Shown here: positions 29,557 through 48,848 of the stretch, piece after piece
Position numbering within the stretch: position 1 is the stretch's first letter
How the letters are laid out: each line of letters opens with the position of its first letter
Assembly (NCBI GenBank): GCA_030645235.1
Contig: JAUSMV010000030.1
Coordinates: 1,296,988-1,360,987, forward strand
Direction of reading: 5' to 3'
Source of the DNA: Parvibaculum sp.
GTDB taxonomy: Bacteria; Pseudomonadota; Alphaproteobacteria; Parvibaculales; Parvibaculaceae
Length of the DNA stretch: 64,000 bases
Position numbers and translations under genes: made by a program
The notes under the pieces: model-generated
Databases searched by the model: none
Told to the model about the DNA's origin: nothing
Seen by the model: only the letters and a program-made list of their open reading frames with translations

Positions 29557-29575
29557 AAAATCAACTCGTCGCGTG

Positions 29576-31611: not shown

Positions 31612-32672
31612 GCGAAATGGGCCTTCAACCGCGGCAGGACTTCGGCACCCATGATCGAAAGGCCTTTGACGTAGTCAGGGAAAATCAGCATGACGCCGTC
31701 AAGTTCGCAGCCTTCGATCTGCTCTTTGAGTTTTTCGAGACAAGTCGCAGGAGTCCCATGCACGGTATGGGTCATGAACGTGTCTTTAGCTTTTTCGCCC
31801 ATGACAGCGGGGCTGCCATCCACTTCCATGCCATAAGAGCGCATCATACCTTGTACGGCGCCCCAATCGAGACCTTCTTTGTAATAAGCAACAGTGCGGG
31901 CCGCCTCGTCGTCGGTGTCACCGAAGACAACCGTGCTCATGGCAAAGACTTTGATCGTAGTGTTGTATTCAGACGCGACGCGGCGCGCGAGACGGCTGAT
32001 ACGCAGTGTGTCGGCCGCATCCTTGCCACCGATAAAGCAGGCATCGGTGTTTTGCACGGTGAAGCGAAGACCACGCTCAGACTGACCCGCGCAAATGAGG
32101 TAGGGACGTGGTGACGACATGGGCTTTGGTTCGGAGACGCAGTCTTTGAAGTTAAAAAACTCGCCGTCGTAGTTCACATGGTCTTGCGTCCACATGGTTG
32201 TGACGAGCTTGGTCCATTCTTCGGCATAGCGATAACGCCCGTCGTGATCAAGTTCTGGCCAGGCACCCATCTGATTGAATTCATCTTTGAACGAACCCGA
32301 CACGATGTTGAGCCCGGCTCGTCCGCCTGAAATGTGATCAAGCGTTGTAATCATCTTGGCGACGACTGCGGGATTTTGTAGCAACGTGTGAACGGTGGCG
32401 ATGATGCGCGCGTTCTTTGTCACCTCGGCAATACCTGCCATCATGGTAACACTTTCAAGCGACGTGCCCCAATGTTCGGTCTCTCCGCCAAAGCCACGCC
32501 ATTTCATCATCGACATGATGAAATCAAGCCCAATGTCATCAGCGAGAATAGCTGCTTCACGATTTTGCTTGTAGGAAGCATCAAGGCGCGGGGCGTTTTT
32601 GGATATGATCCAGCCGCCATTGGCGATAGGAAGGAAGACACCGAATTCTTTTTTCGAGGCGGGGGCATTCAT
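31608..32672 (-). CDS. Luciferase-like flavin monooxygenase, RutA-like
   Basis: GVFLPIANGGWIIS, MKWRGFGGETEHW..SLES.TMMAG, DHISGGRAGLNIVSG. Confidence 0.85.
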   Translation of the reverse strand: MNAPASKKEFGVFLPIANGGWIISKNAPRLDASYKQNREAAILADDIGLDFIMSMMKWRGFGGETEHWGTSLESVTMMAGIAEVTKNARIIATVHTLLQNPAVVAKMITTLDHISGGRAGLNIVSGSFKDEFNQMGAWPELDHDGRYRYAEEWTKLVTTMWTQDHVNYDGEFFNFKDCVSEPKPMSSPRPYLICAGQSERGLRFTVQNTDACFIGGKDAADTLRISRLARRVASEYNTTIKVFAMSTVVFGDTDDEAARTVAYYKEGLDWGAVQGMMRSYGMEVDGSPAVMGEKAKDTFMTHTVHGTPATCLEKLKEQIEGCELDGVMLIFPDYVKGLSIMGAEVLPRLKAHFA

Positions 32673-32723
32673 TGGCGCGGAACCTTTTGTTAGCGGAACT
32701 GTTAGGATTTTGTGAAGGGCGAA

Positions 32724-34007
32724 TTATTCGGCTACGGCTTTCAGCTCGCCAAGAGCGCGGGCGTCACCCTCATCTTTCGCTTCGCGCAAAGGCGGGCGCA
32801 TGAAGAGAACGGCGATAAGCATAGCAGCCGGCACAATCGTGTAGAGGAAGAAGGCGTAAGAGAAAGAACCTGTCTGGTCGCGCATATAGCCACCGAGCAC
32901 GGGGCCGAAGGCGGCGAGCGTTGCACCGACATTCATCAACGAGAAAAGTTCCAGATACGCACTACGCCCAAAATAATTCATCAACAATACGCAGGTCGCC
33001 AGAAACGTCATGCCATAGCCGATGCCGATGCCGACGGCGTAGATAATGAGAGCAAGCCAGTTGGTGCCGATGCCAAGGCCAATCATGCCTGCAACAAGCA
33101 TCGCGAGCGCGATGACAAGGAGAATTTTGGGGTCGATATATTCACCGATAAAACCACTGACCGCGCGCGAGGCCGAATTGAGGAAAGCTTCGAAGCTGAG
33201 CAGACCGCCGGCCACGCCCATAGCGACGCCAATTTCTGAAAGATGCGCGACGGAGAGACTGTTCACTGTGATACCGCAAAGGAGAAAAGACATGTGCGCG
33301 GCAGCAATGATATAGAACTGTGGTGTGCGCAGAGCCTGTTTGGCGGTCCACTTTTGTGTTGTGACGTAAACGCCAGACGTGTTTTCAATAATGGCGGCCT
33401 CTGCGATATCTTCGGCCTTTTGATCTTCATCTTTGCCTTCACGTAGGAAGGCCGCGCAGATGAGACCGGCAATCGTTGTAAGGATCGCCACAATCATCCA
33501 ATGCATGCGCCAATCGTCCCAGACGCCAACAGCGGCAAAATATATGAGCGGCCCAGCGATGCCACCGACGCCACCGATGGTGAAGTAGATGCCGAAGGCG
33601 AATGACTGCTTTTTAAACGTGCGCCCGATCATGTAGGTGCCGGGCACTGTCGCGACGAATGAAAAGCCCATGCCGGTGAGAAGCATGGCTAGAAAGTAGG
33701 TGGGCACGTCCTGCACGGTGTAGAGGAGCATAAAACCCGCGGCGAGAATGGCCGTGCCGATGAGAAGCGTGACGCGCACACCAACTTTACGGATGAGGAA
33801 AGCGGGCGGAAAACTCGACAGGCCACAGGAGATGCCCATGATCGTGAAACCGAGACCGGCGGACGTCCAATCCCAGTTAAGCTCCTTCACCATCGCCGGC
33901 AGCACAACACCAAGCGAAGTAAAGGTACCGGCTGTGACGAGAAAAAAGATGGCACTGAAAGACAGCAAAACGAACCACGGGTAGATTTTGGAATTGTCGG
34001 AGTTCAT
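32724..34007 (-). CDS. MFS transporter
   Basis: About 12 TM helices; LIRKVGVR and IGEYIDPK loop motifs. Confidence 0.9.
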   Translation of the reverse strand: MNSDNSKIYPWFVLLSFSAIFFLVTAGTFTSLGVVLPAMVKELNWDWTSAGLGFTIMGISCGLSSFPPAFLIRKVGVRVTLLIGTAILAAGFMLLYTVQDVPTYFLAMLLTGMGFSFVATVPGTYMIGRTFKKQSFAFGIYFTIGGVGGIAGPLIYFAAVGVWDDWRMHWMIVAILTTIAGLICAAFLREGKDEDQKAEDIAEAAIIENTSGVYVTTQKWTAKQALRTPQFYIIAAAHMSFLLCGITVNSLSVAHLSEIGVAMGVAGGLLSFEAFLNSASRAVSGFIGEYIDPKILLVIALAMLVAGMIGLGIGTNWLALIIYAVGIGIGYGMTFLATCVLLMNYFGRSAYLELFSLMNVGATLAAFGPVLGGYMRDQTGSFSYAFFLYTIVPAAMLIAVLFMRPPLREAKDEGDARALGELKAVAE

Positions 34008-34056
34008 GTGCTGTCCTTCAGGCTTCTTTGACGCAGTTACTCAGGCTTTAGATAGT

Positions 34057-36552
34057 TTAGAAACGGTAGGTTGCAGTTGTGCGCCATTCGCGACCTTTAC
34101 TCGGCAATACGGCGACGTCGCCATAAAGATCCTGAAGGGGCGTGAAGTATTCTTCATCGAAGACGTTGTCGATGTTGAGAGCGACACGCCAATCGGCGAA
34201 GTCCACATAGGCTGATGCCTGAACGAGGAAGTAATCAGGATACTTTACAGGTGAAGCAGCAAGACCTGCTGTTGACGACACGTAGCGCACACCAACGGTC
34301 GAACCTGCGTAACCCCAATCATATTTGTCGGATGTGAACGTGCTGTAGAGGCTCGCCACGACTTCCGGGATGCGACGATCTTCGATTTCGCCGGAGTAGT
34401 AGCTGTTGCCAGTGATGGCTGCGATGCCGCTGAACGAGTAGCCGACAAGACCTGCACCATAGTAGTCAGCCGGGTTGTAACCAAAGGTTGCCGGCGTGAA
34501 GTAGTAGAAGGCATCATAGCTGTCGAGGAAGGTTGTCTTCTGGACATTGCCCGCGAATGTGAAACTCAGATTCTTCGTGGCGAGATAGCGCAGTTCCAGT
34601 TCGACACCGCGTCCTTCGGTCTCATCAACACCGCCACCAACGGGATCAAGCACGGTGCGGTGCTGGAGGTAGTAAGCGAGAGCGCCCGTCAGCACACCGT
34701 TGAAAGCGTCGAGCTTGATGCCCGCTTCGGCAAGATCACCCTCGGAGAGCCAGTTCTTGTTCGCGATATTGGTGGGCGACACGTCACCCGCCTGGCCAAA
34801 CTCGATGGCGGATGTCTCAGCATAAGTCACATAAGGACGAATGCCATATGGACCTTTGTACATGGCCATAGCGCTGTAAGTGAAGTCAGCGTCATTATCG
34901 TGCTGTGCACCAGGCGTGCAATAGCAGAGCGCGCCTGTGTCATTGGCATCAACGGTGTAGCTATCATAGCGACCCGTCAGCGTGATCGTCATCTTGTCGT
35001 CGAGGTCAAAATCACCCATCGCGAAGAAGCCGGTATCGTCCCATGTCGAGTCGTTATTGTAATCCCATACATAGCCCGAGCCAGCGATGAAGGGTGAGCC
35101 TAGGGTGTCGGTGGGTGTGGCACCGAGCGAGATGTCGCGGCGGTCAAGCGCGATGCCGCCATAGTTAAAGGACTCTTTTTTATTGGCTTCGTAATAGCGA
35201 TAGCTTGTGCCGACATTGAAGCTCGCATTAAGCGGTAGGTTGGGCGCATTCACATCGAAGGCGTAGCTGACGCGACCCTCGGTCGTTGACGCGTCATAGT
35301 CGGCGGGAAAGCCATAGCTTACGAAACGCTGGTTCGATAACGAGTCATAGAACAGTTGCATCGACAATTTGGAACCGTTGCCGAAGGCTTTGATGAGATC
35401 GCCGTAGAGGGTGAGTGTTTCGGTATCGGAGAAATCTGAATCGCTCGTATAGACATCACGATGGCTTAGTTGTGTGGTGCCGACGCCTGTATCAAGCTGA
35501 CGATAGACGAGAGGAACATCGCAAAAGCCGAAGCATTCCGGCGCATGCGTGAGGCCGCCGGGAGGTAATTCAGAGCGATCAACATAACCATTGCCATTGG
35601 CATCGATGATGCCTGTGTTTTGACCGGTGATGTAGGTGCCGTTGTCGATCAGGCTTTGCGTGACGCGGTTCCAGCCCGGTGTCTGCACATAGCCTTCGGA
35701 GTTATAGTACATGGCACCGCCGCCATAGGTCCAACCGTCCAACGTGTCGAATTGGGCGGTGGTCTGGAGGAGCTGGTGCTCTGGCTCGATACCGCGGTAG
35801 TAGCTTTCGGAATCTTCTATTTCGCCATAGACGAAAACGCCGCCGCCGGTGTCACCGAAGTTCAACGGGATGCCAGCTTCAAAACTGCCATTCTTCTTGC
35901 CATAGGAACCGAGCGTGCCCGTCACCTGACCGGACACTTCTGTCATATAGCCGGCTTCTTCGCTGACCTTAGCGGTCTTGGGCTCAAGATTGAGCAGACC
36001 ACCGACTTTGCCGGGACCGAAATTAGCTGTCGGCGGTCCGCGCAAAATATCAACGCGCGACGTCGCCCCCAGCGGCGTCTGATAAGTACCGCGGTTTTCG
36101 ATGCGCTTGAACCCGTGGAAATAAGTTTCGGCGAGAAGACCACGCACATTGAGCGCGCCTTCGACACCATAGTATGAAGAGGTGAAGGTGCCCGGCGACA
36201 CGGCGGCGAGATCGTCCACGGTTGTCACACCATAAGCGGCCATTGTTTCATCGCTGACGAATGAGGCCGAACGCGGCGTCTCAAGCAGTGGCTTTTCGAG
36301 CCCAAGCAAAAGATTGCTCGGTTGCTTTTCGAGAAGACCCGCTTTGTCGCGTTCTGAAATGACGACCATTTCATCAACCGCGGCGGTTTTGGCTGCCTCG
36401 TCCTTTGTCTCTTGTTCTGTCGCGGCGGTGGTCGCCGCATCAGTTGTGGCTGTCGTTTCAGCCGCCCATGCGCCGAGCGGCGCAAGCCCCGTGACAACGA
36501 CGGCTGCCATTGCCGTTCGTGAGACCGAATTAATCAAACTTAACTTGCCCAT
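34057..36552 (-). CDS. TonB-dependent outer membrane receptor
   Basis: Signal peptide; plug ETPRSASFV and DILRGP; C-terminal NIDNVFDEEYF...GREWRTTATYRF. Confidence 0.95.
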   Translation of the reverse strand: MGKLSLINSVSRTAMAAVVVTGLAPLGAWAAETTATTDAATTAATEQETKDEAAKTAAVDEMVVISERDKAGLLEKQPSNLLLGLEKPLLETPRSASFVSDETMAAYGVTTVDDLAAVSPGTFTSSYYGVEGALNVRGLLAETYFHGFKRIENRGTYQTPLGATSRVDILRGPPTANFGPGKVGGLLNLEPKTAKVSEEAGYMTEVSGQVTGTLGSYGKKNGSFEAGIPLNFGDTGGGVFVYGEIEDSESYYRGIEPEHQLLQTTAQFDTLDGWTYGGGAMYYNSEGYVQTPGWNRVTQSLIDNGTYITGQNTGIIDANGNGYVDRSELPPGGLTHAPECFGFCDVPLVYRQLDTGVGTTQLSHRDVYTSDSDFSDTETLTLYGDLIKAFGNGSKLSMQLFYDSLSNQRFVSYGFPADYDASTTEGRVSYAFDVNAPNLPLNASFNVGTSYRYYEANKKESFNYGGIALDRRDISLGATPTDTLGSPFIAGSGYVWDYNNDSTWDDTGFFAMGDFDLDDKMTITLTGRYDSYTVDANDTGALCYCTPGAQHDNDADFTYSAMAMYKGPYGIRPYVTYAETSAIEFGQAGDVSPTNIANKNWLSEGDLAEAGIKLDAFNGVLTGALAYYLQHRTVLDPVGGGVDETEGRGVELELRYLATKNLSFTFAGNVQKTTFLDSYDAFYYFTPATFGYNPADYYGAGLVGYSFSGIAAITGNSYYSGEIEDRRIPEVVASLYSTFTSDKYDWGYAGSTVGVRYVSSTAGLAASPVKYPDYFLVQASAYVDFADWRVALNIDNVFDEEYFTPLQDLYGDVAVLPSKGREWRTTATYRF

Positions 36553-36614
36553 GCCTGAAAGGCCCCCTTATCTACTACGCAGAACCAGATTGTTCGCAGA
36601 TGCAGGATACAGAG

Positions 36615-36630
36615 AGCAAGGCCTATGCCA
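36615..36630 (-). promoter_or_regulatory. Sigma54 (RpoN) -24/-12 promoter of the TBDR-MFS-rutA-like operon
   Basis: Minus strand TGGCAT-AGGCC-TTGCT, near-consensus; AT-rich tract upstream (possible IHF site). Confidence 0.8.
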
Positions 36631-36734
36631 CTTGGGTAACATATTGATCTATATAGTGAAATTTATTTTTTAAGCATGCCCCGCAATGAGTTTTGACAAA
36701 AAATCATCACGCATCGCAACATCGTCCACTTGTT

Positions 36735-36780
36735 TGCACCCGTTAACGGCAGTTGGCCGTCCGCGCACAAAATTCGACAA
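36735..36780. promoter_or_regulatory. Candidate NtrC-type enhancer sites
   Basis: TGCACCCGTTAACGGCA (36735-36751) and a weaker CGCACAAAATTCGACAA (36764-36780), 105-150 bp upstream of the sigma54 promoter. Confidence 0.4.
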
Positions 36781-37156
36781 GTTTCCGTGCGCGTAAGACG
36801 CGTTTGATCAAGTGGCTTTAGGGCAACGGTTACGAGATTGCTCGTCGGCGAACCGGACAGCGCATGCGTAAAATGACGTAAGGCTTGAGAAAATGTGGTT
36901 AAGGGCGGTGTGAGCCGATGCGCGGCGGCGCGGGGGTCACAGACGTCAAACACGCGCTGAAAAATGTAGCAACGCTGTTTGAGTGCCAATTTGTTGATCA
37001 ACCCGCCCTTGTGCCAACACAACGAAAAAATCCACACAATTCATTGGGCGCTTCCATACAAGACCAGCCAAAGAATGAAGACTTAACTGCGCTCACACAT
37101 TGTTAGAAGTGACGCTGAGTCTGAAGCGACACTGGGTAAGAAGTGACGCATAGAGC

Positions 37157-38011
37157 ATGACAACCGACAACCTCATTCGTACCCGTCCGTTGATGGCGGG
37201 TTTTGGTGTAGAGATTCTTGATGTGGATCTCTCGACGGCGGACGAAGACGCAAGGCAAAATGTAATCAGACTGTTCCACGAGAATGGCGCGATAGTGTTG
37301 CGCGGTCAGACCATGGCGCCTGATGACTTGATGGCTTTCATCAAGCTCTTTGGCGAACCGGAAGACCACACACAGACAAAGTTCACCCTGCCCGGCTATC
37401 CGAAGATTTTTCTGTTGTCGAATAAGGAGGTCGATGGCAAGCCCATCGGGGCACATAATGACGGTGTAGGCTGGCACACCGACTACTCTTACAAAGAAGA
37501 GCCGGTGATGTGCACGATGCTCTATGCCATCGAAGTGCCGCCTGAAGGCAGTGACACGCTGCTCGCGGATCTTTGTGTCGCCTATAATGTTTTACCCGAT
37601 GCGCGCAAAGCAGAACTCGACGGGCTAATGTTGCATCACTCCTATCAGCACCTGATGTCGAGCCGCGAATTTGGCCGCATGGAACTTTCAGATGAGATGA
37701 AGGCGGCCAATCCTGACGTCATCCATCCGCTTATCCGAACGCATCCCGCCAATGGGCGCAAAGCCTTGTGGGTGAGCACCGGCACGGTCAAAGGTGTGAT
37801 CGGTATGGAAGACGCTCAAGCCCAAGCGTTGCTTGACGAGTTGGTAGAGTTTGTCACTGAGGAGCGTTTTGTCTATCGCCACAAATGGCAAGCGGGCGAT
37901 ATTCTCGTTTGGGATAATCGTTGCACCCTGCATACGGGCACGCTGTTTGACGATACAAAATATGTGCGCCTTATGCACCGGCTCTGGGCCAAGGGCGACA
38001 AACCTTTCTGA
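37157..38011 (+). CDS. TauD/TfdA-family Fe(II)/2-oxoglutarate dioxygenase
   Basis: GWHTD, DTLLAD, HPLIRTHP, WDNRCTLH. Confidence 0.92.
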   Translation: MTTDNLIRTRPLMAGFGVEILDVDLSTADEDARQNVIRLFHENGAIVLRGQTMAPDDLMAFIKLFGEPEDHTQTKFTLPGYPKIFLLSNKEVDGKPIGAHNDGVGWHTDYSYKEEPVMCTMLYAIEVPPEGSDTLLADLCVAYNVLPDARKAELDGLMLHHSYQHLMSSREFGRMELSDEMKAANPDVIHPLIRTHPANGRKALWVSTGTVKGVIGMEDAQAQALLDELVEFVTEERFVYRHKWQAGDILVWDNRCTLHTGTLFDDTKYVRLMHRLWAKGDKPF

Positions 38012-38042
38012 GACCGCGCCTCTCCTTCCGACTGGAAAATAT

Positions 38043-38888
38043 ATGACGAGCCTTAAGCCCAAAGTCTGGTGGATCACCGGCGTCAGTTCAGGATTTGGCA
38101 GAGCGATTGCCGAGGCGGCACTCGCGCGTGGTGACACAGTTGTGGGTACGGTGCGGCGCGAGGCGGACGCCAAGGGCTTTGAAGCACTCGCCTCTGGACG
38201 CTCTTTAAGTTTCATCCTCGATGTCACGGACGATGAAGCGGTGCACAAAACTGTTTCATTCATTGAGATCGCAACAGGTGGCATCGACATTCTTGTCAAT
38301 AATGCAGGCTATGGTCTTGTCGGCGCGATTGAAGAGGCAACATCTGCTGAAATCCGTTCGCTGTTTGACGTTAATGTATTTGGGGCGATCAGCGTCATTC
38401 AAGCAGTCTTACCCTATATGCGCGGGCGGCGAGCGGGGCGCATTATCAATGTTACATCAGTGAGCGGACTAGCACCCTGGATGGGTACGGGAATTTATGG
38501 CGCGAGCAAATTTGCGCTGGAATGTATAGGTCAGACGCTCGCTGAAGAGGTGAAGCCACTTGGTATTAAGGTAACAAACGTGGCGCCCGGCGGCTTGCGA
38601 ACGGATTTTGCCACGCGATCGCTCACGACGTGCAAGGCCGAGATTGCCGATTACGAACCGACGGCGCATATGGCTCGCAGCATTTTGTCGAGAGGCGGCG
38701 GTAGCGAGAAGGGCGATCCGGAAAAAGCGGCGCACGCGGTACTGGCTATCGCTGACGCGGACGAGCCGCCAATGCATCTTCTGCTCGGTGCCGACGCGAT
38801 GCATTATGTCGGGCGCTCGCTCGGTGCCTTTCATGCGGAAATAGCTGACTGGGCACCGCTTACGGTTTCAATCGCCTACGACAAATAG
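38043..38888 (+). CDS. SDR oxidoreductase
   Basis: ITGVSSGFG, NNAGYG, YGASK. Confidence 0.92.
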   Translation: MTSLKPKVWWITGVSSGFGRAIAEAALARGDTVVGTVRREADAKGFEALASGRSLSFILDVTDDEAVHKTVSFIEIATGGIDILVNNAGYGLVGAIEEATSAEIRSLFDVNVFGAISVIQAVLPYMRGRRAGRIINVTSVSGLAPWMGTGIYGASKFALECIGQTLAEEVKPLGIKVTNVAPGGLRTDFATRSLTTCKAEIADYEPTAHMARSILSRGGGSEKGDPEKAAHAVLAIADADEPPMHLLLGADAMHYVGRSLGAFHAEIADWAPLTVSIAYDK

Positions 38889-38906
38889 CTTCAGAGAAGG
38901 CCAAAG

Positions 38907-38940
38907 AAAAAGAGCGGCACTTATATGCCGCTCTTTTTGT
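38907..38940. terminator. Bidirectional intrinsic terminator
   Basis: AAAAAGAGCGGCA-CTTATA-TGCCGCTCTTTTT between convergent genes. Confidence 0.88.
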
Positions 38941-38953
38941 ATCTGCGTTGCGC

Positions 38954-39769
38954 TCAGGTCGGTCGGCGCGTCTCAGCGACAGTGACGCGGTAGCCAGAAC
39001 GGACCTGCGGGAAATAGTCCCAGACTGCCAAATGCCATGTGCAGCGATTGTCCCAGAAGGCTACCGATTTCGGCTGCCAGCGAAAACGCACATGGAAATT
39101 GGGGTTGGAACAATGCTTGTAAAGCATCTCCAACACACCATCGCTTTCGGCTTTGCCCAAGCCCACAATGTTTGTCGTGTATGACGGATTGACAAAGATA
39201 CCCTTCTTACCGGTCACGGGATGCGTGCGCACAACGGGATGCGTGCTGCAAGGAAAGCGTTTATTCGGGTTGTTGGTGATCGGTCGATAGACGTGCTCAC
39301 CATCATGAACCGCCATCAAGCCATCGAGATAGGTCTGCATGCCGGGCGAAAGCGCATCATAGGCGGCATACATACTCGCAAACATCGTGTCGCCGCCGAA
39401 CTCCGGCACGATGGGTAAATAGAGAATGCTGCCCATGGGGGGAGTATCATTGCAGGTAAGGTCGGAATGCCAGTTTTCACCTGCGACAAATTTTGAATTC
39501 TCATCAGCATGGATCGCGACGATTTCTGGGTGCTCAGTAAGTCCCGCCACGCCGCTATGGATAGCAAGCTCACCAAAGGCGCGGCCAAGTTCTTTGTGGC
39601 GCTCATGCGTCAGATCCTGATCGCGCAGGAAAATCACCTGATGTTCCATCAGGGCACCATGCAACTCGTCGATGAGTTTGTTGGTGATCGGTTTGGAAAG
39701 ATCAATGCCTCCGATTTCCGCGCCAATGCGTGCTGTCATTGGTTTTACAGTCAATATTTCGTATTCCAT
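38954..39769 (-). CDS. TauD-family Fe(II)/2-oxoglutarate dioxygenase
   Basis: IGAEIGGIDL, NWHSD, GGDTMFA, HPVVRTHPVTG, WDNRCTWH. Confidence 0.93.
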   Translation of the reverse strand: MEYEILTVKPMTARIGAEIGGIDLSKPITNKLIDELHGALMEHQVIFLRDQDLTHERHKELGRAFGELAIHSGVAGLTEHPEIVAIHADENSKFVAGENWHSDLTCNDTPPMGSILYLPIVPEFGGDTMFASMYAAYDALSPGMQTYLDGLMAVHDGEHVYRPITNNPNKRFPCSTHPVVRTHPVTGKKGIFVNPSYTTNIVGLGKAESDGVLEMLYKHCSNPNFHVRFRWQPKSVAFWDNRCTWHLAVWDYFPQVRSGYRVTVAETRRPT

Positions 39770-40104
39770 AAACCCAAATCCTCTACAGCGCACCTGAACC
39801 CAACGAACCATGCTCACCCCTGAATGCTAAACAAAAGCCGTTCCACATGCTTGTCTCTACGCGCCCGCGCATTTGTCTCGCAGCACATTTTCTGGCAGCC
39901 GTCGCCGTAAGCTGCTGCTGCTTTTCGCGGCGTTTGCACGCCCGTTAAATAGGCAAAGGGGTACGCGCGTGGACCTTTGGCAATAGTTTGGACGCGTGGC
40001 GCCAAGCGGACGGGACCGCTTTCTGCCTAATCTGATGTCTCGCCCGATGAGGCCCGATATTTGCTCTGTCGTTCAACGACAGTTGCGTATGAGCGGAGAC
40101 AAGA

Positions 40105-41313
40105 ATGCCGAGCACTATTCTCACCCCTGAATTCTTCGACGGGCTGCAAAGCTCGGTGATTGGTGTCAGCAAAGCCGAAACTTTGCCGCCCGCTTGTTAC
40201 ACAAGCGAAGAATTCTTTGAGTTTGAGAAAGAAGCCCTGTTTAACCGCGAATGGCTTTGCACCGGCCGCGCCGATTGGGTGAAGAGCCCCGGCGATTTTT
40301 TCACCGTCACCCATATTGGCGAACCGCTCATCATCACACGCACACGCGCAGGTGAGCTCAAAGCCCTCTCTGCTGTCTGTCAGCACCGCGCAATGCTGGT
40401 CGCTGAAGGTCGGGGCAATACCAAGGCTTTCGTCTGCCCTTATCACCACTGGACCTATGCACTCGACGGGCGCCTGATGGCGGCCCCTGCCATGAGCGAG
40501 ACCTGTGACTTCAGCCGTGATGAGATAAGGCTACCTGAGATCAAAACCGAAGTCTGGCAAGGCTTTGTCTTTGTGAATTTTGACGCGGAAGCCGCGCCGC
40601 TTGCGCCGCGATTGACGACAGTCAGCGAGGCTTTAGCGAACTACGATCTAATGAGCGCTGAAGGCGCGGTGCCCGACGCACCAATGAGTTTTCCATGGAA
40701 CTGGAAAGTCATGATGGAAAACAACAATGACGGCTATCACGCCAACAAGCTCCATAAAGGCCCTCTCCACGATTTCATCCCGAGCGAATTAGCGACCTTT
40801 CCTGAGATGCCCGAAGGAAGCGCGGGCTACCTGCGCTTCAACGGCACGCTGCATAAAGATGCCGCCTTCAACATTTTGCAAAAAGCGATCTTGCCGGTCT
40901 TCCCGAAGCTCACTGACGAGGAACGCCACCGCGCACTCTTTGCCAATATCCCGCCAACACTATCGCTCGTCGTCACGGCCGACATGGTGATTTACCTGAT
41001 CCTGCATGCGGAAAGCGCCAACACCCATTCCATGACAATCGGCTGGCTTGTGGCACCTAGCGCTATGTCGGAACCCTTATTCCAAGAGCGCCTCGACATG
41101 AATATGCAATCGGCCATGGAAATCACCAAGCAGGATCTCCACGTTGATAAGCTTGTGCAGATCGGCCTCAAATCACGCTTTGCGGTGCGCGGGCGGTATT
41201 CGTGGCAGGAACGTGCGCAGAGCGATCTCAATCAATGGCTCGTTTCGCGCTACCGCGCTTGCTGGGATGAGATGCAAGAGCCGCAGTCACGTCTCAAAGT
41301 GCACGCCGAATAA
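40105..41313 (+). CDS. Rieske non-heme iron oxygenase alpha subunit (choline monooxygenase-like group)
   Basis: CQH...CPYH Rieske ligands; NNDGYH..KLH mononuclear Fe ligands; QD. Confidence 0.92.
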   Translation: MPSTILTPEFFDGLQSSVIGVSKAETLPPACYTSEEFFEFEKEALFNREWLCTGRADWVKSPGDFFTVTHIGEPLIITRTRAGELKALSAVCQHRAMLVAEGRGNTKAFVCPYHHWTYALDGRLMAAPAMSETCDFSRDEIRLPEIKTEVWQGFVFVNFDAEAAPLAPRLTTVSEALANYDLMSAEGAVPDAPMSFPWNWKVMMENNNDGYHANKLHKGPLHDFIPSELATFPEMPEGSAGYLRFNGTLHKDAAFNILQKAILPVFPKLTDEERHRALFANIPPTLSLVVTADMVIYLILHAESANTHSMTIGWLVAPSAMSEPLFQERLDMNMQSAMEITKQDLHVDKLVQIGLKSRFAVRGRYSWQERAQSDLNQWLVSRYRACWDEMQEPQSRLKVHAE

Positions 41314-42113
41314 TGCCTGAGAAGAACCACGTCATGCAAAAAACCGCTCCCGCCATTTTCTTCGGCCATGGCAGTCCGGGTAATGTGATGGAAGACAATG
41401 CCATAACACAATGTTGGGAAGCGCTTGGTCATGAGATCGGCAAGCCCAGAGGCATCATCTGTGTATCAGCTCATTGGTATACGCATGGCATCTATGTGAG
41501 TGCCGCAGCAAAGCCCGACACCATTCACGATTTTGGCGGCTTCCCGCAAGAGATGTATCGCCTGCAATATCCCGCTGCCGGTGCGCCAGAACTCGCAGCG
41601 GCGATTGCGGCCCGTCTTGCGCCGCTTGATGTGACGCCCGATCCGGAACGTGGCTTTGATCACGGCTCTTGGTGTGTACTTTCTAAAGTCTATCCGGATG
41701 CTGACGTGCCCGTTGTGCAGGTGAGCATGGACATGACTTTGCCGCCGGAAGCGCATTTTGAGATCGGGAAACGTCTCGGCACGTTTCGTGATGAAGGCTA
41801 TCTGCTCATGGGTTCCGGTAACATTGTGCACAACCTGCCAGAAATGGATTGGCAGATGCGTAGTGGCGCTTACGACTGGGCGACGCGTTTTGGTGATCAT
41901 ATCCGCGCGAGCATTGAGGCCGACACCCCTCAGGGCATTGTCAATTATGCTGCTCAAGGACGCGACGCGACGCTTTCTGTCCCGTCGCCTGATCATTACC
42001 TGCCACTGCTCTATGTCATGGGCGCGCGCCGTCCAAATGACTCACTGCGCTTTGAAACAACAGTCGTCGAGTATGGCTCGCTCGACATGACGAGTGTGGT
42101 GATCGGCGCATGA
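41313..42113 (+). CDS. 4,5-DOPA extradiol dioxygenase-like (YgiD/LigB family)
   Basis: FFGHGSP, SAHW, TIHDFGGFP, GFDHG, GSGNIVHNL, PSPDHYLPL. Confidence 0.9.
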   Translation: MPEKNHVMQKTAPAIFFGHGSPGNVMEDNAITQCWEALGHEIGKPRGIICVSAHWYTHGIYVSAAAKPDTIHDFGGFPQEMYRLQYPAAGAPELAAAIAARLAPLDVTPDPERGFDHGSWCVLSKVYPDADVPVVQVSMDMTLPPEAHFEIGKRLGTFRDEGYLLMGSGNIVHNLPEMDWQMRSGAYDWATRFGDHIRASIEADTPQGIVNYAAQGRDATLSVPSPDHYLPLLYVMGARRPNDSLRFETTVVEYGSLDMTSVVIGA

Positions 42114-42211
42114 ATAAACGTCTCTTGGCCATATCTATTGCGTGCTGACACAAGACGGCAGATCACGCTCAGCTGACACTCAAATATCTGTCTTAGTTCT
42201 CTGGAGTTCTC

Positions 42212-43291
42212 ATGGCGCATACACCTGTACAGGCTTCTCAAGGTTCAGACCGCACAACGCCGTCTGCCCTTCACGTTCTCAAAGCAACACCTGAGACCTG
42301 CCATTGGGGTTATTTCGATGCGTCGCTTGCGCCTGTGATCAAAGTCAAAAGTGGCGATCTTATTCAGGCCGAGGCTGTCACTCATCACGCGGGCGACGCG
42401 CCTGACATTATGATGGATGAATCCGTGCGCCACATCTTCACGACAATCCCTGAGGCCGACCGCAATCCTGGCGTCCATCTGATGACGGGGCCGATCTGGG
42501 TGGAAAATGCCAAACCCGGCGATATGCTTGAAGTGCGCTATCTGCGCATGACGCCACGCTTTGACTATGGCTCGAACCTCGCGGCCAATTGGGGGCATCT
42601 CTACAAGGAGTTCGGCGAAAGAGAGCGCGTAACGATCTATCGTCTCGATAAAGCAACCAATCAGGCTGAAGCTTTCTACGCCTATGACTTTCAGGGTAAG
42701 TATGAAATGCCAGGCAAGATCACCAATTGCCCTGAATGTGACCGCCAGGCGGCGCTAAACGGCGTGCGTGTACCAGTGCGCCCGCATCTCGGTACTGCGG
42801 GCGTCGCCCCTGACGTGAAAGGTCGCGTCAGTACCATTCCACCGGGTGCGCATGGCGGCAATATTGACAATTGGCGCATCGGTGCGGGCGCCACAATGTT
42901 TTATCCCGTTGCAGTGGACGGGGCGCTTTTCTCCATTGGTGACCCGCATATCTCGCAAGGAGATGGAGAGATTAGCGGCACGGCGATTGAAGCCTCACTC
43001 GACGTGCTCTTTCAGATCGTGCTTCGTAAGGATTTCCGTTTTCCCTCGCCGCTGCTTGAAACACCAAAGTTCTGGATTGTGCATGGCTTTGATGAGGATC
43101 TTAATGTCGCCATGCGCGGCGCCTCGCTCGACATGTTGAAATTCCTCAATGAGGAACGCGGATTGAGCAAGAACGACGCCTATTCACTTATGAGCATTAC
43201 AGCGGACTTCACCGTGACGCAGGTGGTGGACGGGCGGCAGGGCGTACATGTGCGCATCCCGCGGAGCATTTTCCCGACAAGCGCTAAGTAA
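42212..43291 (+). CDS. Acetamidase/formamidase family protein
   Basis: HWGYFD, TGPI...AKPGD, HGGNIDNW, GDPH.SQGDGE.SGTAIE. Confidence 0.92.
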   Translation: MAHTPVQASQGSDRTTPSALHVLKATPETCHWGYFDASLAPVIKVKSGDLIQAEAVTHHAGDAPDIMMDESVRHIFTTIPEADRNPGVHLMTGPIWVENAKPGDMLEVRYLRMTPRFDYGSNLAANWGHLYKEFGERERVTIYRLDKATNQAEAFYAYDFQGKYEMPGKITNCPECDRQAALNGVRVPVRPHLGTAGVAPDVKGRVSTIPPGAHGGNIDNWRIGAGATMFYPVAVDGALFSIGDPHISQGDGEISGTAIEASLDVLFQIVLRKDFRFPSPLLETPKFWIVHGFDEDLNVAMRGASLDMLKFLNEERGLSKNDAYSLMSITADFTVTQVVDGRQGVHVRIPRSIFPTSAK

Positions 43292-43489
43292 AGCACCGTT
43301 ATCTGTACCTTTGGTCTGCGGGCACGCTTCTTGCGAAGTCTCACATGTGCGACGCAGCCAAAGGTGTCCTTCTGCCAGTTTTTTGCAAAAGGCATTGAGG
43401 AGACCATTTGAGCTGCACAAATTTTTGGCAAGAGGCGCGGCTATGAGCAGTGAATGCCTTAGGCCATTGTAATGAGTGTGTGAGACCTT

Positions 43490-45868
43490 ATGGATGCTTG
43501 GCGCTTTTCTACTGAATCTTATCCTAAGCCGGACCGCTACGAAGCTTGGCAGGAGGCACTGGAGCGCCTTGCGCTGAAGCCCACGGGCCACTCGACCAAT
43601 GACGGTGCCTACGGCGTCTTGTCTGCCGTAATCGCACAGTCGGGCATGAGCTTCACGCGGCTCACGTCTACACCGCAAGACCTAAGCGCCATTCAGGAGA
43701 TCAACAAGGAGGCAGGCAAGGACGGCGTTTGGGTGACGTCGCTGCTCGAAGGCCGTGTCACGTTCCATGATGCTGGCCACGACATAAAAGCGTCGGCCGG
43801 TGACATCGTTTATGGCGCTGTCGGATCTGACACGACCTTCACGCTCGAAACCAACTGCCGCATGGTCATCGTCTACATCCCGCGCTCGGCCTTTCGCCCG
43901 CGCCTGATGGCACCCCTTCCCACAAAGGTTATTCATCTGTCGGGCCGTGCAGGCATCGGCCATGTGCTGGCGGGCTTTCTCGCCTCTGTCTCCGAAGCGC
44001 TGGAGGATCTGAGCGTCGATCAACTGCGCCCCATTGAAATGGCGCTACCTGAATTTTTAATGGCGGGAATTTTCAAACAAGCTGACACGCGCGCGCTCGG
44101 TGGTGCAGCGGGCGTGCGCGCGGCGCTGCTTCACCGCGTGTGCCAGACAGTTGAAGCACAACTTGGCGATCCGGACCTTTCGCTCACCCAAATTGCGGAG
44201 AGCCACGGTATTTCACCGCGCTATGTGCAGAAACTTTTCGAAAATGTGGGGCAGAGCTTCACGCGCTATATCCGTTATCGCCGTCTCGAACGGTGCCGCT
44301 ATGACCTTGAAAGCCCTATTCACAATCAGCTATCCATCTCAGATATTTGTTTCCGCTGGGGCTTCAACGATGCGGCACATTTCAGCCGCGCTTTTCGCGA
44401 TCAGTATAATATCTCACCGCGTGAGTATCGTCGTGCATCTCCCGCCGAACGAGAGGCGGGAGATGCATGGGTAGCCAACCGCGGTAAGCCTGCCGAGCGC
44501 GTCGGCGCGCAGCGTGATGATTCACGCCAGTACGAGCATGAGCCGGAAGGCGAGCTGGCCGTGGCCTCCCCGCCTGCGATGACGCCTGAACCTGAGTTCG
44601 TCAGCGTGCCGTTGTCAGAAGACGGTGCAAGGCATCACTATTTGCCAGCGACTGCCAACACAGTACATTGGGGCTATTTCAGCCGCTCGATCCCACCGGT
44701 CCTCAACATGCGCACGGGCGATTTCGTCACCATTGAAACGCTGACGCAGCATGCCAACGACGACCATGAACGCATGATCGACAATGATGCGGGCGCCGAA
44801 AGCGTATTTCATTGGACGAAAGAAGGTAAAAATGTCGACCGACGCGGCGCAGGGCCAACCGATGCATCAATCTATGGCCGTGGCTCCGGCGAAGGTTTCG
44901 GCGTTCATATTTGTACCGGACCCATTTACATTCAGGACGCGATGCCTGGAGATATTGTTGAGCTTCGTGTGCTCGACATTCAACCGCGCCCTTGCGCCAG
45001 CGAGCGCTTCGAGGGACGACACTTTGGCAGCAATGCCGCCGCGTGGTGGGGATTTCACTATAGTGAATTGTTGACACAGCCGACGAACCGCGAAGTCATC
45101 ACGATCTATGAAATTGAAAAACGGCGCAGCGGCGATGTGGCGCGCGCAGTTTACAATTACCGCTGGACACCGCAAACCGATCCATTCGGTGTCGTTCATT
45201 CGATCATCGACTATCCAGGCGTACCGGTTGATCACACGACGATTGAGAAGAATTTTGATGTCCTCAAAAATATCGAGATACCATTGCGGGCGCATTTTGG
45301 TGTGGTGGCGCTCGCCCCTGATCACTGGGGCGCAGTGGATAGCGTGCCACCCGCGCATTTCGGCGGCAATATTGACAACTGGCGGCTAGGTGCGGGGGCT
45401 TGTGTCTTTCTGCCTGTCTCCGTTCCCGGTGGACTTTTATCAGTTGGTGATCCCCATGCCTCGCAAGGTGACTCAGAGCTATGCGGCACAGCGATTGAAT
45501 GTTCATTGACGGGTGTGTTTCAGGTGGTCCTACACAAGAAACGCGAGCTACCCGGTAAGCTCGTCGATCTCGATTATCCGCTCATTGAAACTGATGATGA
45601 ATGGGTGATCACGGGATTCTCTCATCCAAATTATCTGAAGGAACTCGGACGCAACGCGCAGACGGAAGTTTACAAGCAGGCTTCCGTTGACCTTGCGATG
45701 CGCGACGCATTTCGCAAGACGCGGCGCTTTTTGATGACCACTAAGGGGTTAACCGAAGACGAGGCGATTTCGCTCATGTCAGTCGCCGTTGATTTTGGCA
45801 TCACGCAGATTGTGGATGGCAATTGGGGCGTTCATGCCGTGATCAGAAAATCCATGTTTCGCGACTGA
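43490..45868 (+). CDS. Fusion of an AraC-family regulator (FeaR-like sensor plus HTH) and an acetamidase/formamidase domain
   Basis: ISPRYVQKLF...SISDICFRWGFNDAAHFSRAFRDQYNISPREYR, then HWGYF, GGNIDNW, GDPHASQGDSELCGTAIE in one reading frame. Confidence 0.9.
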   Translation: MDAWRFSTESYPKPDRYEAWQEALERLALKPTGHSTNDGAYGVLSAVIAQSGMSFTRLTSTPQDLSAIQEINKEAGKDGVWVTSLLEGRVTFHDAGHDIKASAGDIVYGAVGSDTTFTLETNCRMVIVYIPRSAFRPRLMAPLPTKVIHLSGRAGIGHVLAGFLASVSEALEDLSVDQLRPIEMALPEFLMAGIFKQADTRALGGAAGVRAALLHRVCQTVEAQLGDPDLSLTQIAESHGISPRYVQKLFENVGQSFTRYIRYRRLERCRYDLESPIHNQLSISDICFRWGFNDAAHFSRAFRDQYNISPREYRRASPAEREAGDAWVANRGKPAERVGAQRDDSRQYEHEPEGELAVASPPAMTPEPEFVSVPLSEDGARHHYLPATANTVHWGYFSRSIPPVLNMRTGDFVTIETLTQHANDDHERMIDNDAGAESVFHWTKEGKNVDRRGAGPTDASIYGRGSGEGFGVHICTGPIYIQDAMPGDIVELRVLDIQPRPCASERFEGRHFGSNAAAWWGFHYSELLTQPTNREVITIYEIEKRRSGDVARAVYNYRWTPQTDPFGVVHSIIDYPGVPVDHTTIEKNFDVLKNIEIPLRAHFGVVALAPDHWGAVDSVPPAHFGGNIDNWRLGAGACVFLPVSVPGGLLSVGDPHASQGDSELCGTAIECSLTGVFQVVLHKKRELPGKLVDLDYPLIETDDEWVITGFSHPNYLKELGRNAQTEVYKQASVDLAMRDAFRKTRRFLMTTKGLTEDEAISLMSVAVDFGITQIVDGNWGVHAVIRKSMFRD

Positions 45869-46760
45869 GATGAGAGCCGAGGCGCGCCAAGGCCTCGACG
45901 GGCGCCCTTGGGCCCATGTGCTCGCAGGCAAGTGCCGCCACACGTGCGGCGATGGTCATGGCTTTGCCGAAGGAAGCGCCTGACATGTCGGCAAAGAGAA
46001 AGCCTGCATGAAAGGCATCACCCGCACCCGTCGTATCAACCACATGACAGGGCGCGGCCGGAACGATCACTATGTCGCCACCATGGAGCGCACCCAATGC
46101 TCCAGCACTGCCCATCGTCACGATATGGCGATGTCCGCCAAGAGCGGCGAGCGCAGCGAGCATGTCAGCTGGCGCGTCCGAGCCTGCAATTTCTGCGGCT
46201 ACCGATTTGGGCACGATGGCTGTCTCAACAAGCGTCAAAAGTTCCAATGTTTGCGCAGTGACCGCCTCAGCATCGCATGTTGTCGCAATGCCTCGCTTAG
46301 CTGCCTCGCGCGCAATGACGACGGAGGCTGCGGTCTCGTGGCCGTCGAAATAAACATGCGTAAACTTAGCCCAATCGGCCTCAGAAATCCGGCCTGAATG
46401 AGGGGGAAAGGCGAGAGAAGCCGTCTCGATGATAGATCTTTCGCCGTTTTCACTATCAACAAAAATATAGGCGCATGGGTTTTGATGACCATCCGCCCGC
46501 TCAACGGCGCTCGCATCGACGCCTGCACTTCCCAGAGCGTTCAACACACGCGCGCCACTGCTGTCCGCACCCACAACTCCAGCATAAGTGACTGGGATGC
46601 CAAGGGCTGACAACGTCACCGCCGCATTCAAGCACTGGCCGCCAATCACAATGACGGGCTCTTGTGTGCGTTGTTTGGCATCACTCGCTAGCGCCGACAA
46701 TTTTACCTTAAAGATGTAGTCCACGCTGTTACGCCCGACACAGAGAACTCTCGACGCCAT
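45843..46760 (-). CDS. PfkB/ribokinase-family sugar kinase
   Basis: GGQCLNAAVTL, VTMGSAG, DTTGAGDAFHAG; SD GGAGG. Confidence 0.92.
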   Translation of the reverse strand: MASRVLCVGRNSVDYIFKVKLSALASDAKQRTQEPVIVIGGQCLNAAVTLSALGIPVTYAGVVGADSSGARVLNALGSAGVDASAVERADGHQNPCAYIFVDSENGERSIIETASLAFPPHSGRISEADWAKFTHVYFDGHETAASVVIAREAAKRGIATTCDAEAVTAQTLELLTLVETAIVPKSVAAEIAGSDAPADMLAALAALGGHRHIVTMGSAGALGALHGGDIVIVPAAPCHVVDTTGAGDAFHAGFLFADMSGASFGKAMTIAARVAALACEHMGPRAPVEALARLGSHLSRETWIF

Positions 46761-46967
46761 AATCACCTCCTTTACATGCAAGCTCACTCTAGCTCTGGCA
46801 CATGCGTCATGCTCGGACAGAGGTGCTCGAAAAATTGGATCAGATACCCGATATCTGAGCTTTCACATTTTGTGAGGTGTATTGCACAAGTTTCGGGGCG
46901 TATGGGCACCTGCATAGAACTTCAATCCGCCACAAAATGAACCTTCAAAACTATGTTCAGGGGTTGA

Positions 46968-48848
46968 GTGATGAGACAGTCGGGCGCAACACGGCGAGAG
47001 GCATTGAAGGCCTTGACGGCCAGCGGGCTGGCAACCCTTTCATTGCCGGCGCTCACCGCTCCTGCTTCAGCTACACAAGGCACTCCCTTTCAGCACGGTG
47101 TAGCGAGCGGCGCCCCTGAAGAGCAGGCTGTTATTCTCTGGACACGCGTCACGGTTGAAGGTGCACGTGACCTCACTTTGCGCTGGCAGGTAGCGTTGGA
47201 TGACACGTTTGAAACCCTCGTGCTCGAAGGCGAGATTGTGGCCCGCGCATCTCATGACCACACTGCCAAAATCGATGTACGCGAACTCAAAGCCGGCCAT
47301 CGTTATGCCTATCGCTTTCTGCTTGGCGACGCGCGTTCACCGACTGGATACACACGGACGCTTGCAGGCGTGGATGCCATGCGGCTCGTACTCGGTGTGG
47401 TCTCCTGCTCACACTACGGCTTTGGCTTTTTCAATGCCTATAGAGAGCTTGGTAAACGCGATGACCTTGATGCCATCGTGCATCTGGGTGACTACATTTA
47501 TGAATACGGACCGGATGGCTATGGCGGCGATGTGGCTAAGGAGATCGGCCGCGAGCATGAACCGGCGCATGAAATTCTGACGCTAGCCGATTATCGCGTA
47601 CGCTTTGCACAGTATCGCCGTGACCCTGATTTGCAGGCAGCGCATGCAGCCGCTCCCTTCATCGCTATGTGGGACGATCACGAGACAGCTAATAATTCCT
47701 GGGCTGCAGGGGCAGACAATCACAATCCGGAAAAAGAGGGTTCATGGGAAGGGCGACGCGATGCGGCGCTTAGAGCCTATTTCGAATGGATGCCGATGCG
47801 TGACCCCAAACCCGGCAAAGCGTTTCATACGCTCCACAGAACTTATGAGATGGGGCGCCTTGCCAGCTTGCACACAATCGAGACGCGGCTCACCGCGAGG
47901 AGCCAAGAAGTGAACTATGAAGACGAAATGCTCTATGCCGAAACGCATTATGACGTCTCAGATGCTCGCCATCCTGTACCTGTTACGCCCGAAGGAGCAT
48001 CGCTCTTGCCCGAAGCGTATGTCGAAATATTGAAAACGCCTTTTTCTGAAAACGATGGCATGCCTGTTTATGATTATGCACGCACCAAACTATGGATGAC
48101 ATCGGCCCTGCCAGAGGGATATTCTTATCGTCCTGATACGGATCGTTTTCGTCGCGAAGTGCTGGGTGACCCCAAACGCATGCTGATGGGGACAGCACAA
48201 CTGGGCTGGTTGGCCCAAGAACTGAAAACGTCGCGCGCCAAGGGTACGCCTTGGCAGATTCTTGGCAATCAGATCGTAATGGCACGCATGGACGCACCGG
48301 ATTTTACCAAAGCTTTCCCCGAGGACGTGATCGCACCTGCAATCGCTACGAATAAGTACAACCGCCAATGGGTTGAGCGAACAAAACTAGGCCTCCCGAT
48401 CAGCCCTGGCGCATGGGACGGCTATCCCGCTGACCGGCAGCGGCTTTACAAGGTCGTGCGCGAGGCGAAAGCCAATTTCATTGTTCTGTCAGGTGATTCA
48501 CATCAGTTCTGGGCGAACGATCTGCGCGAAACGCCGCAAGGAAACCGCATCGGTATTGAGTTTGCCACAAGCAGTGTCAGCTCCAAAGGAGGATACGACT
48601 ATCTTGCTGCTGACCCGCGCGTTTATGACATCGCCGAGGAAGTGTTGCAGCGCGACGTGCCGGAAATCCATTGGTGTGATACGCGCCATCGTGGATTTAT
48701 TGTGTTGGAAGTCACAGCGGAGAGCATTTGCGCCGACTATATGGCTGTCTCGACTGTAAAGTCGCGTGACTACACCGTGACGCGCCTGCGTCGGTTTGAG
48801 GTTTCTCAAGAAGGCGCAGGCATTTTATCGGAATTGAAAGAAGTGTAA
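46968..48848 (+). CDS. phoD: PhoD-family alkaline phosphatase/phosphodiesterase, Tat-exported
   Basis: TRREALK, FQHGVASG, HLGDYIYEY, WDDHETANN, WDGYP, SGDSH. Confidence 0.93.
   Translation: MMRQSGATRREALKALTASGLATLSLPALTAPASATQGTPFQHGVASGAPEEQAVILWTRVTVEGARDLTLRWQVALDDTFETLVLEGEIVARASHDHTAKIDVRELKAGHRYAYRFLLGDARSPTGYTRTLAGVDAMRLVLGVVSCSHYGFGFFNAYRELGKRDDLDAIVHLGDYIYEYGPDGYGGDVAKEIGREHEPAHEILTLADYRVRFAQYRRDPDLQAAHAAAPFIAMWDDHETANNSWAAGADNHNPEKEGSWEGRRDAALRAYFEWMPMRDPKPGKAFHTLHRTYEMGRLASLHTIETRLTARSQEVNYEDEMLYAETHYDVSDARHPVPVTPEGASLLPEAYVEILKTPFSENDGMPVYDYARTKLWMTSALPEGYSYRPDTDRFRREVLGDPKRMLMGTAQLGWLAQELKTSRAKGTPWQILGNQIVMARMDAPDFTKAFPEDVIAPAIATNKYNRQWVERTKLGLPISPGAWDGYPADRQRLYKVVREAKANFIVLSGDSHQFWANDLRETPQGNRIGIEFATSSVSSKGGYDYLAADPRVYDIAEEVLQRDVPEIHWCDTRHRGFIVLEVTAESICADYMAVSTVKSRDYTVTRLRRFEVSQEGAGILSELKEV

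Follow-up and report, generated by a model that had tools for sequence, protein, structure and literature searches.

The stretch of DNA analysed here, referred to as the window, comprises 64,000 nucleotides from Parvibaculum sp. (assembly GCA_030645235.1, contig JAUSMV010000030.1, positions 1,296,988 to 1,360,987). At positions 43490-45868 on the forward strand it carries a gene in which an AraC-family transcriptional regulator and an acetamidase/formamidase-type domain are joined in a single protein of 792 amino acids (aa). The gene is supported by its open reading frame (ORF), by four Pfam domains and by full-length homologues. A beta-rich, cupin-like AraC_binding_2 domain (residues 1-197, 43490-44080), recognized by Pfam (PF14525), AlphaFold and Foldseek, is followed on the same strand by an AraC/XylS double helix-turn-helix DNA-binding domain (residues 205-322, 44102-44455; HTH_18 1.1e-21, HTH_AraC 5.7e-17), a flexible linker (residues 323-380, 44456-44629) and a complete FmdA/AmdA amidase domain of the long type represented by Protein Data Bank (PDB) entry 3B9T (residues 381-792, 44630-45865), the last identified by phmmer, Foldseek and its invariant columns. 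A first-pass annotation had described this one ORF as joining a FeaR-like N-terminal domain, an AraC double helix-turn-helix, a linker and a full amidase; its coordinates and lengths were exact, and the Pfam matches bear it out.

The AraC_binding_2 match covers residues 52-175 with 27.2 bits against a cut-off of 27, while HTH_18 matches residues 236-315 with 77.4 bits (cut-off 33.6) and HTH_AraC, within the same residues, scores 61.8 bits (cut-off 26.6). FmdA_AmdA (PF03069) matches residues 472-776 with 95.3 bits (cut-off 27), spanning model positions 64-356 of 373. With a DNA-binding domain of two helix-turn-helix motifs and a separate N-terminal domain, the protein has the make-up of an AraC/XylS regulator. 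The FeaR model (NCBIfam NF007243) spans residues 15-316 but reaches only 119.5 bits against a cut-off of 199, and the core is therefore better called FeaR-like than FeaR. The genes feaB and tynA, for phenylacetaldehyde dehydrogenase and amine oxidase, are the defining targets and neighbours of FeaR; they are absent next to the fusion, whose neighbours are TauD, Rieske, LigB, FmdA and PfkB genes. On the formamidase FmdA equivalog model (NCBIfam NF045496) the fusion scored 50.1 bits and the free-standing amidase beside it 72 bits against a cut-off of 500, and neither should be named a formamidase on such scores.

An AlphaFold model built from 76 family members had a mean predicted local distance difference test (pLDDT) score of 82, a predicted template-modelling (TM) score of 0.55 and three confident modules, namely the N-domain (residues 1-197), a seven-helix DNA-binding domain (205-322) and the amidase (381-792). 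Within the N-domain, confident strands run over residues 2-131 and helices continue to residue 197. In Foldseek searches the core matched CuxR (5NLA) best, the N-domain also matched the AraC dimerisation domain, and the DNA-binding domain matched those of AraC-family proteins. The linker is poorly conserved (17% identity) and variable in length, with a pLDDT below 50 over residues 324-369; an R-G-x-P motif directly behind the DNA-binding domain (residues 331-334) is conserved.

A search of 5.8 billion proteins returned 3153 matches to the fusion. The best 120 of these 3153 were all 762-893 aa long with the same domain set, at 54-96% identity, and came from Parvibaculum, sphingomonads, Alteromonas, Paraglaciecola, Nevskia, Paraburkholderia and Nitrobacteraceae. 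The full-length homologues (760-890 aa, same domains) number more than 3000 and span alpha-, beta- and gammaproteobacteria, including Alteromonadaceae, Burkholderiaceae and Xanthomonadales, and other assemblies hold 792-aa orthologues that are 96% and 91% identical. When one genome per species was scanned, at least 571 related stretches came up, from which 80 loci carrying the fusion were kept. Composition, including guanine-plus-cytosine content, is even across the AraC-amidase junction. In a tree of amidase domains the fused ones grouped together in a single clade (98/95 support) whose sister group consists of free exported enzymes, and in a tree of the AraC cores these divided cleanly into a fused and a standalone side. 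The two trees indicate that both halves trace to a single fusion event and that the fusion is ancient. The long amidase type is rare, occurring in only 5 of 401 evenly sampled alphaproteobacterial genomes (2 fused, 3 free), and a DNA-binding domain was found in none of the ten other long amidase relatives checked (517-950 aa).

The amidase is the most conserved part of the protein. When the fusion was compared with 61 distant members, the amidase domain showed 70% identity, with 124 of 411 columns invariant, including those of GGNxD, GDPHASQGDxE and GTAIE; the DNA-binding domain followed with 64% (20 of 111 columns) and the N-domain, the least conserved folded module, with 36% (4 of 205), while only 3 of 65 linker columns were invariant. 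The motifs GGNIDN, GDPH, SQGD and GTAIE, which the first-pass annotation had read in both the fused domain and the adjoining free amidase, are indeed present in both translations (FGGNIDNW...VGDPHASQGDSELCGTAIECS in the fused domain, HGGNIDNW...IGDPHISQGDGEISGTAIEAS in its neighbour). Across 76 fusions nearly all positions of the family motifs GGNxD and GDxHxxxGDxE...TAxE are invariant and the remainder are at least 90% conserved, and those of the fused domain align with the same motifs of the solved relatives 2F4L and 5UBU. The closest structural relative is 3B9T (phmmer E 5.6e-184; Foldseek target-normalised TM-score 0.92, 63% identity), with further Foldseek matches to 2F4L, 2II1, 3TKK and 5UBU, and the domain is 63-68% identical to the free exported enzymes. 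The FmdA_AmdA family was related in one review to a bi-zinc formamidase (PMC4602302). Branches within the fused clade are short, with no acceleration of the kind expected of a pseudoenzyme, and the fused domain is probably a catalytically competent metallo-amidase. The free exported 3B9T-like enzymes (about 465-500 aa, with a signal peptide) were seen in isolation, beside a transposase or unrelated genes, and their neighbourhoods showed no conserved partner and no clue to a substrate.

A conserved asymmetric element, CAA-N6-GGGCGC-N7-CAAGAC, precedes orthologues of the free amidase, Rieske and TauD genes in loci of alpha-, beta- and gammaproteobacteria. It was found by inspection and an anchored search in which the two CAA anchors were imposed; a T, the GGGCGC block and the trailing AC are strongly conserved though they were not imposed. 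A 34-nt matrix was made from 34 sites of other genomes, with the window and its closest relative excluded, and was run over both strands of the whole 3.83-Mb genome, with the reversed genome as a null. Four predicted operators were located in this way. The first, CACACAATTCATTGGGCGCTTCCATACAAGACCA (37033-37066, forward strand), is the best match in the genome (29.9 bits) and lies 90 nt upstream of tauD1, the first gene of a predicted target unit at 37157-38888 (forward) that consists of a TauD-family dioxygenase (37157-38011) and a short-chain dehydrogenase/reductase (SDR; about 38043-38888). The second (39846-39879, reverse strand; rank 2, 20.1 bits) precedes tauD2, a predicted target encoding a second TauD-family dioxygenase (38954-39817, reverse; Pfam TauD 1.3e-69), 28 nt from the GTG of the longest ORF and, by our own count, about 76 nt from the likely ATG. 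This longest ORF opens with GTG; its orthologues and the operator position suggest that the true start is the ATG at 39769 (MEYEILTV...). The third (39977-40010, forward; rank 18, 14.6 bits) is intergenic and lies 94 nt upstream of a predicted target unit at 40105-42113 (forward), made up by Pfam of a Rieske/Ring_hydroxyl_A oxygenase gene (40105-41313) and a LigB-type extradiol dioxygenase gene (41313-42113), while the fourth (42125-42158, forward; rank 8, 17.4 bits) lies 53 nt upstream of the free amidase.

All four operators fall within 5.2 kb, are intergenic and are oriented with the downstream gene, whereas most other top matches lie inside ORFs. The reversed genome gave no match of 20 bits or more, 3 of at least 17.4 bits and 12 of at least 14.6 bits. 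By our own arithmetic, 4 of 19 matches would fall by chance within a single 5.2-kb interval, fixed in advance, of a 3.8-Mb genome with a probability of about 1e-8. The predicted sites thus stand 28-94 nt upstream of four local genes and are nearly unique in the genome. Orthologues of the fourth operator precede the free amidase in Parvibaculum, Hyphomonas, Novosphingobium and Paraburkholderia, and in a Sphingomonas locus the RutA-like, major facilitator superfamily (MFS) and LigB units have sites upstream as well. No consensus sigma-70 promoter was found upstream of the target genes, as is expected for promoters that depend on an activator. From the co-occurrence of regulator and site we predict that the AraC core binds this element.

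Other ways of defining the site were tried and set aside. A blind expectation-maximisation motif search on the upstream regions recovered mostly coding sequence (the C-terminus of LigB and a glyoxalase gene) and was discarded. A reading as two equal direct repeats 22 bp apart failed because the second half lacks GGGCGC-like conservation, which is why we describe the site as asymmetric. Sigma-54 promoters were considered from TGGCAC-like elements that follow some sites, but in Parvibaculum a -35-like TTGGCA fits equally well. An exact degenerate pattern with 13 fixed bases proved too loose, matching 85 of the 401 alphaproteobacterial genomes along with a fair number of reversed controls; the corresponding search for the regulator found only 3 other genomes. 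As a separate observation, in Paraburkholderia and Caballeronia the sequence TGGCACGGACATTGC lies about 60-80 nt upstream of the fusion gene and is a good match to a sigma-54 -24/-12 promoter, although the seven loci that carry it are close kin and its conservation proves little. With such a promoter, the regulator would itself be controlled by nitrogen or by an enhancer-binding protein.

When residues 1-330 of the fusion were used as query, about 1250 standalone AraC proteins of 315-350 aa were found that are 45-50% identical over the full core. They occur in Phenylobacterium, Caulobacterales, Paremcibacter and others, are uncharacterised, and stop just after the DNA-binding domain, past the sequence SPREYRR, with no linker. 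In the core tree 57 of 60 sampled standalone proteins formed one clade. The other three grouped with the fused side; they are longer than the rest and apparently incomplete, two being labelled partial in the source, and the division into fused and standalone regulators can therefore be read as a single split. The Phenylobacterium locus holds TauD and SDR genes in divergent orientation, then Rieske, LigB, FmdA (363 aa) and AraC (323 aa) genes and a convergent PfkB gene, which is the gene order of the window minus the fused amidase, and a second standalone locus is similar. In these standalone loci, none of which was used for the matrix, sites of 22-33 bits were found in the same divergent TauD/Rieske spacers, and two of them, one being that of Phenylobacterium, keep the divergent pair of sites. 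Four of the six standalone loci lack FmdA and carry hydantoinase A/B genes, a small cupin, a glyoxalase-like gene and an IclR gene, the last being present in none of 84 fused loci. What is new here is a conserved DNA site, of genome-wide specificity, that is common to both clades, together with an amidase-less sister clade in the same Rieske-LigB(-FmdA) clusters and the contrast, within the fusion, between a highly conserved amidase and an N-domain less conserved than that of the sister clade.

The free amidase next to the fusion (42212-43291, forward strand) is a short-type FmdA/AmdA enzyme of 359 aa (Pfam 7.7e-34, 117.6 bits), and these two are the only FmdA-family genes in the genome. The first-pass annotation had called it a free-standing paralogue of the fused domain. 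An adjoining amidase with the family motifs is there, but the kinship is distant, at 37% identity and with the two in deeply separated clades of the amidase tree, where the cytoplasmic free long type and the short type also form separate clades. Of 84 fused loci, 63 hold an orthologue of the short amidase (60% identity or more) no further than 10 kb from the fusion; in nine its place is taken by a free long amidase with the N-terminus MKHH... and no signal peptide, and twelve have no free amidase, the flanks being incomplete in about half of those. Since 72 of the 84 loci hold a separate free amidase, the fused copy is not simply the only amidase of the pathway. Short amidases also adjoin amidase-less regulators, and this, together with the predicted operator of its own, leads us to read the free amidase as a regulated pathway enzyme and not as a dedicated partner of the fusion. 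The spacer between the two genes contains two elements, GGGCACGCTTCTTGCGA (43320-43336) and CTGCACAAATTTTTGGCA (43413-43430), that are kept in the window and four other Parvibaculum loci, the remaining spacer not being conserved; they may be the fusion gene's own promoter or the site of another factor.

The reading that we favour somewhat, at a probability of about 0.55, is that the protein is a local activator with a tethered, probably active amidase that is coupled to regulation. The AraC core, composed of the cupin-like N-domain and the double helix-turn-helix, would bind CAA-N6-GGGCGC-N7-CAAGAC just upstream of weak promoters and would switch on at least four local units: tauD1-sdr, tauD2, rieske-ligB and the free amidase. 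The tethered amidase may bind an amide that serves the pathway as substrate or intermediate, would probably hydrolyse it, and would thereby set the activity of the switch, whether as the sensor of the effector, as the maker of the true inducer or as its destroyer. A signalling role is favoured because the amidase is the most constrained module, the N-domain is relaxed, most loci already contain a free amidase and the architecture has been stable. At 60-70% identity of the DNA-binding domain, N-domain identity is 0.35 in fused against 0.51 in standalone regulators, and at 80-90% it is 0.505 against 0.737, a comparison that rests on non-independent pairs; lower N-domain conservation in the fused regulators would fit a shift of sensing away from this domain. 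Since amidase fold and DNA-binding domain lie in one polypeptide, the protein has the architecture of a trigger enzyme, as the first-pass annotation had proposed. The parts of that proposal that stand are a real and ancient fusion and a motif-complete, slowest-evolving amidase, while its idea of hetero-oligomers with the free amidase fared poorly. A more specific version, a flux-sensing trigger enzyme of a new type in which turnover of an amide or lactam at the amidase and not ligand binding by the N-domain gates the island, the family having arisen once by capture of a 3B9T-type enzyme by an AraC activator with sensing shifted to the enzyme, is put forward tentatively and is rather unlikely.

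Besides the non-independence just mentioned, several observations weigh against coupling. About 46 residues of the linker (324-369) are disordered and the model shows no fixed inter-domain packing; a tether of this length, with little order and little conservation, makes rigid allosteric coupling unlikely. In this genome neither the fusion gene nor the receptor operon is preceded by a site. By their predicted sites, the standalone regulators run homologous clusters through the same DNA element without an amidase, so that the amidase would not be needed for the basic switch. To call the fused amidase intact is a statement about motif conservation. Finally, hydantoinase A/B genes are present in four of the six standalone loci and in 0 of 84 fused loci (hypergeometric P of about 6e-6 by our own arithmetic, with only six standalone loci), a contrast that may reflect non-orthologous replacement of the amide- or lactam-opening step.

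Some of these points favour the view that the protein is bifunctional and uncoupled, the N-domain sensing the inducer, as that of the amidase-less sisters presumably does, and the tethered amidase serving as a pathway enzyme with no influence on transcription. The sister clade with the same synteny and DNA site, the disordered and variable linker with no predicted packing, and the close identity of the domain to free exported enzymes are all in keeping with it, and the hydantoinase contrast, small as the sample is, suggests that the fused amidase fills a metabolic slot. However, a regulator is usually present in few copies and is a poor site for a bulk catabolic enzyme. Moreover, the fusion has stayed intact across three classes since its single origin, with only apparently incomplete standalone proteins on the fused side of the sampled trees, the N-domain is under looser constraint than in the standalone clade, and most fused loci already hold a free amidase. 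We regard the uncoupled protein as unlikely, yet as an explanation to be taken seriously. A trigger enzyme is by definition both enzyme and regulator, and evidence for coupling and evidence for a metabolic role are not mutually exclusive.

An amidase fold that only binds a ligand or oligomerises, without turnover, seems improbable. Sensor domains derived from enzymes are common in one-component regulators, and the fused domain has GDSE where GDGE is canonical; but GDSE is found likewise in free 3B9T and is therefore a trait of the subfamily and not a sign of decay, and 124 invariant columns and short branches argue against a loss of catalytic constraint. Slightly more improbable is the suggestion, also made in the first-pass annotation, that the fused domain and the free amidase form mixed oligomers, so that transcription would respond to how much enzyme is present or occupied. 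According to the Pfam family description FmdA of M. methylotrophus is a homotrimer, the 3B9T entry holds four chains, and the presence of a free FmdA-family gene within 10 kb in most fused loci would be as expected. The partner is nonetheless inconstant, being a distant short type in most loci, replaced by a long cytoplasmic type in nine and absent from twelve; the short type also stands beside regulators that have no amidase, and in the window it has a predicted operator of its own like any ordinary regulated gene. A strain-specific loss of a stop codon, or a mis-assembly joining two genes, can be dismissed, because intact 792-aa orthologues exist in other assemblies, thousands of independent full-length relatives and 80 genome loci carry the fusion, and composition is even across the junction in the window.

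The coupled activator would sit within a larger gene island. TauD was identified by Pfam on an orthologue of tauD1 (163.8 bits for NCBIfam taurine dioxygenase, below the cut-off) and adh_short in the SDR. The LigB-type protein passes the NCBIfam 4,5-DOPA-extradiol-dioxygenase model (317 bits against a cut-off of 233), and the synteny of rieske and ligB is kept in fused and standalone loci alike. The remainder of the island, at 29035-36552 on the reverse strand, encodes by Pfam and NCBIfam a TonB-dependent receptor, an MFS transporter, a RutA-like monooxygenase, an isochorismatase-family hydrolase, an ArgE/DapE-like protein and a flavin reductase, and over this interval the operator matrix gave no match above 10 bits. 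The RutA-like protein is a luciferase-type monooxygenase (252 bits, below the cut-off), the hydrolase has BiuH and RutB as best matches, also below the cut-off, and the two genes occur in 44-45 of the 84 fused loci. This set resembles the Rut pyrimidine pathway, with all scores below the curated cut-offs. TonB and ExbB genes lie at 27384-28938. A PfkB-family kinase gene (45843-46787, reverse strand) is convergent with the fusion gene, the 3' ends overlapping by 26 bp (45843-45868); in Phenylobacterium the amidase-less regulator likewise has a convergent PfkB gene behind it, and the kinase may therefore be part of the island. No Rfam family was found in 36000-47200, and a repeat search and the composition revealed nothing unusual.

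Oxygenases and ring-cleavage enzymes occur here side by side with several amide hydrolases, which points, with low confidence, to an island that serves the uptake and breakdown of a nitrogen-containing ring or amide compound, which is probably an amide, a lactam or an N-heterocycle. Neither the long amidase nor the regulator occurs in three genomes of the same family, and the island is thus accessory.

Should the amidase be coupled to the regulator, the fusion would represent an unstudied class of enzyme-regulators with thousands of members in soil and marine proteobacteria. The standalone sisters on the same DNA site offer a ready comparison and, if the flux-sensor version is true, a natural before-and-after pair for the evolution of an enzyme into a sensor. 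The family could thus serve as a tractable system for the recruitment of catalytic domains as sensors, and possibly as an amide- or lactam-responsive expression switch. The identity of the inducer would probably reveal the substrate of the island and also that of the 3B9T-type subfamily, whose structure was solved in 2007.

Enzyme-derived sensors and trigger enzymes are known kinds of protein; in the literature searched, no paper was found on an FmdA/AmdA domain behind a complete AraC regulator or on its gene cluster, and FmdA_AmdA operons were discussed in one paper only, on a different system of the AmiC/AmiR type. Among the proteins compared here, PDB 3B9T (acetamidase/formamidase YP_546212.1 of Methylobacillus flagellatus KT, a predicted enzyme deposited under the molecule name 'Twin-arginine translocation pathway signal protein') is of the same long FmdA/AmdA subtype as the fused domain and has GGNID, GDPHASQGDSE and GTAIECS, but it is a free protein of 484 aa that carries an export signal, lacks a DNA-binding part and has no assigned function. 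The standalone AraC regulators share the core, the Rieske-LigB(-FmdA)-regulator-PfkB synteny and the DNA site, and differ in ending after the DNA-binding domain, in their more conserved N-domain and in the hydantoinase A/B and IclR genes of four of six loci. FeaR and CuxR have the same two-module core, an AraC_binding_2 or cupin N-domain with a DNA-binding domain, and lack a C-terminal enzyme domain.

PutA, BirA, GabR/MocR and E. coli Ada, the last with an AraC-type helix-turn-helix flanked by methyltransferase domains, are trigger enzymes or enzyme-regulators for which coupling has been demonstrated. Like them, the fusion combines a catalytic fold and DNA binding in one polypeptide, and the two may be coupled in it as well. 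GbdR, CdhR and ArgR of Pseudomonas join an AraC DNA-binding domain to a class-I glutamine-amidotransferase-like domain, a hydrolase-type fold that presumably senses a small nitrogen compound. In these regulators the enzyme-like domain is N-terminal and takes the place of the sensor, whereas in the fusion described here the enzyme domain is C-terminal, has been added to a retained N-domain, belongs to an unrelated fold and has kept its motifs.

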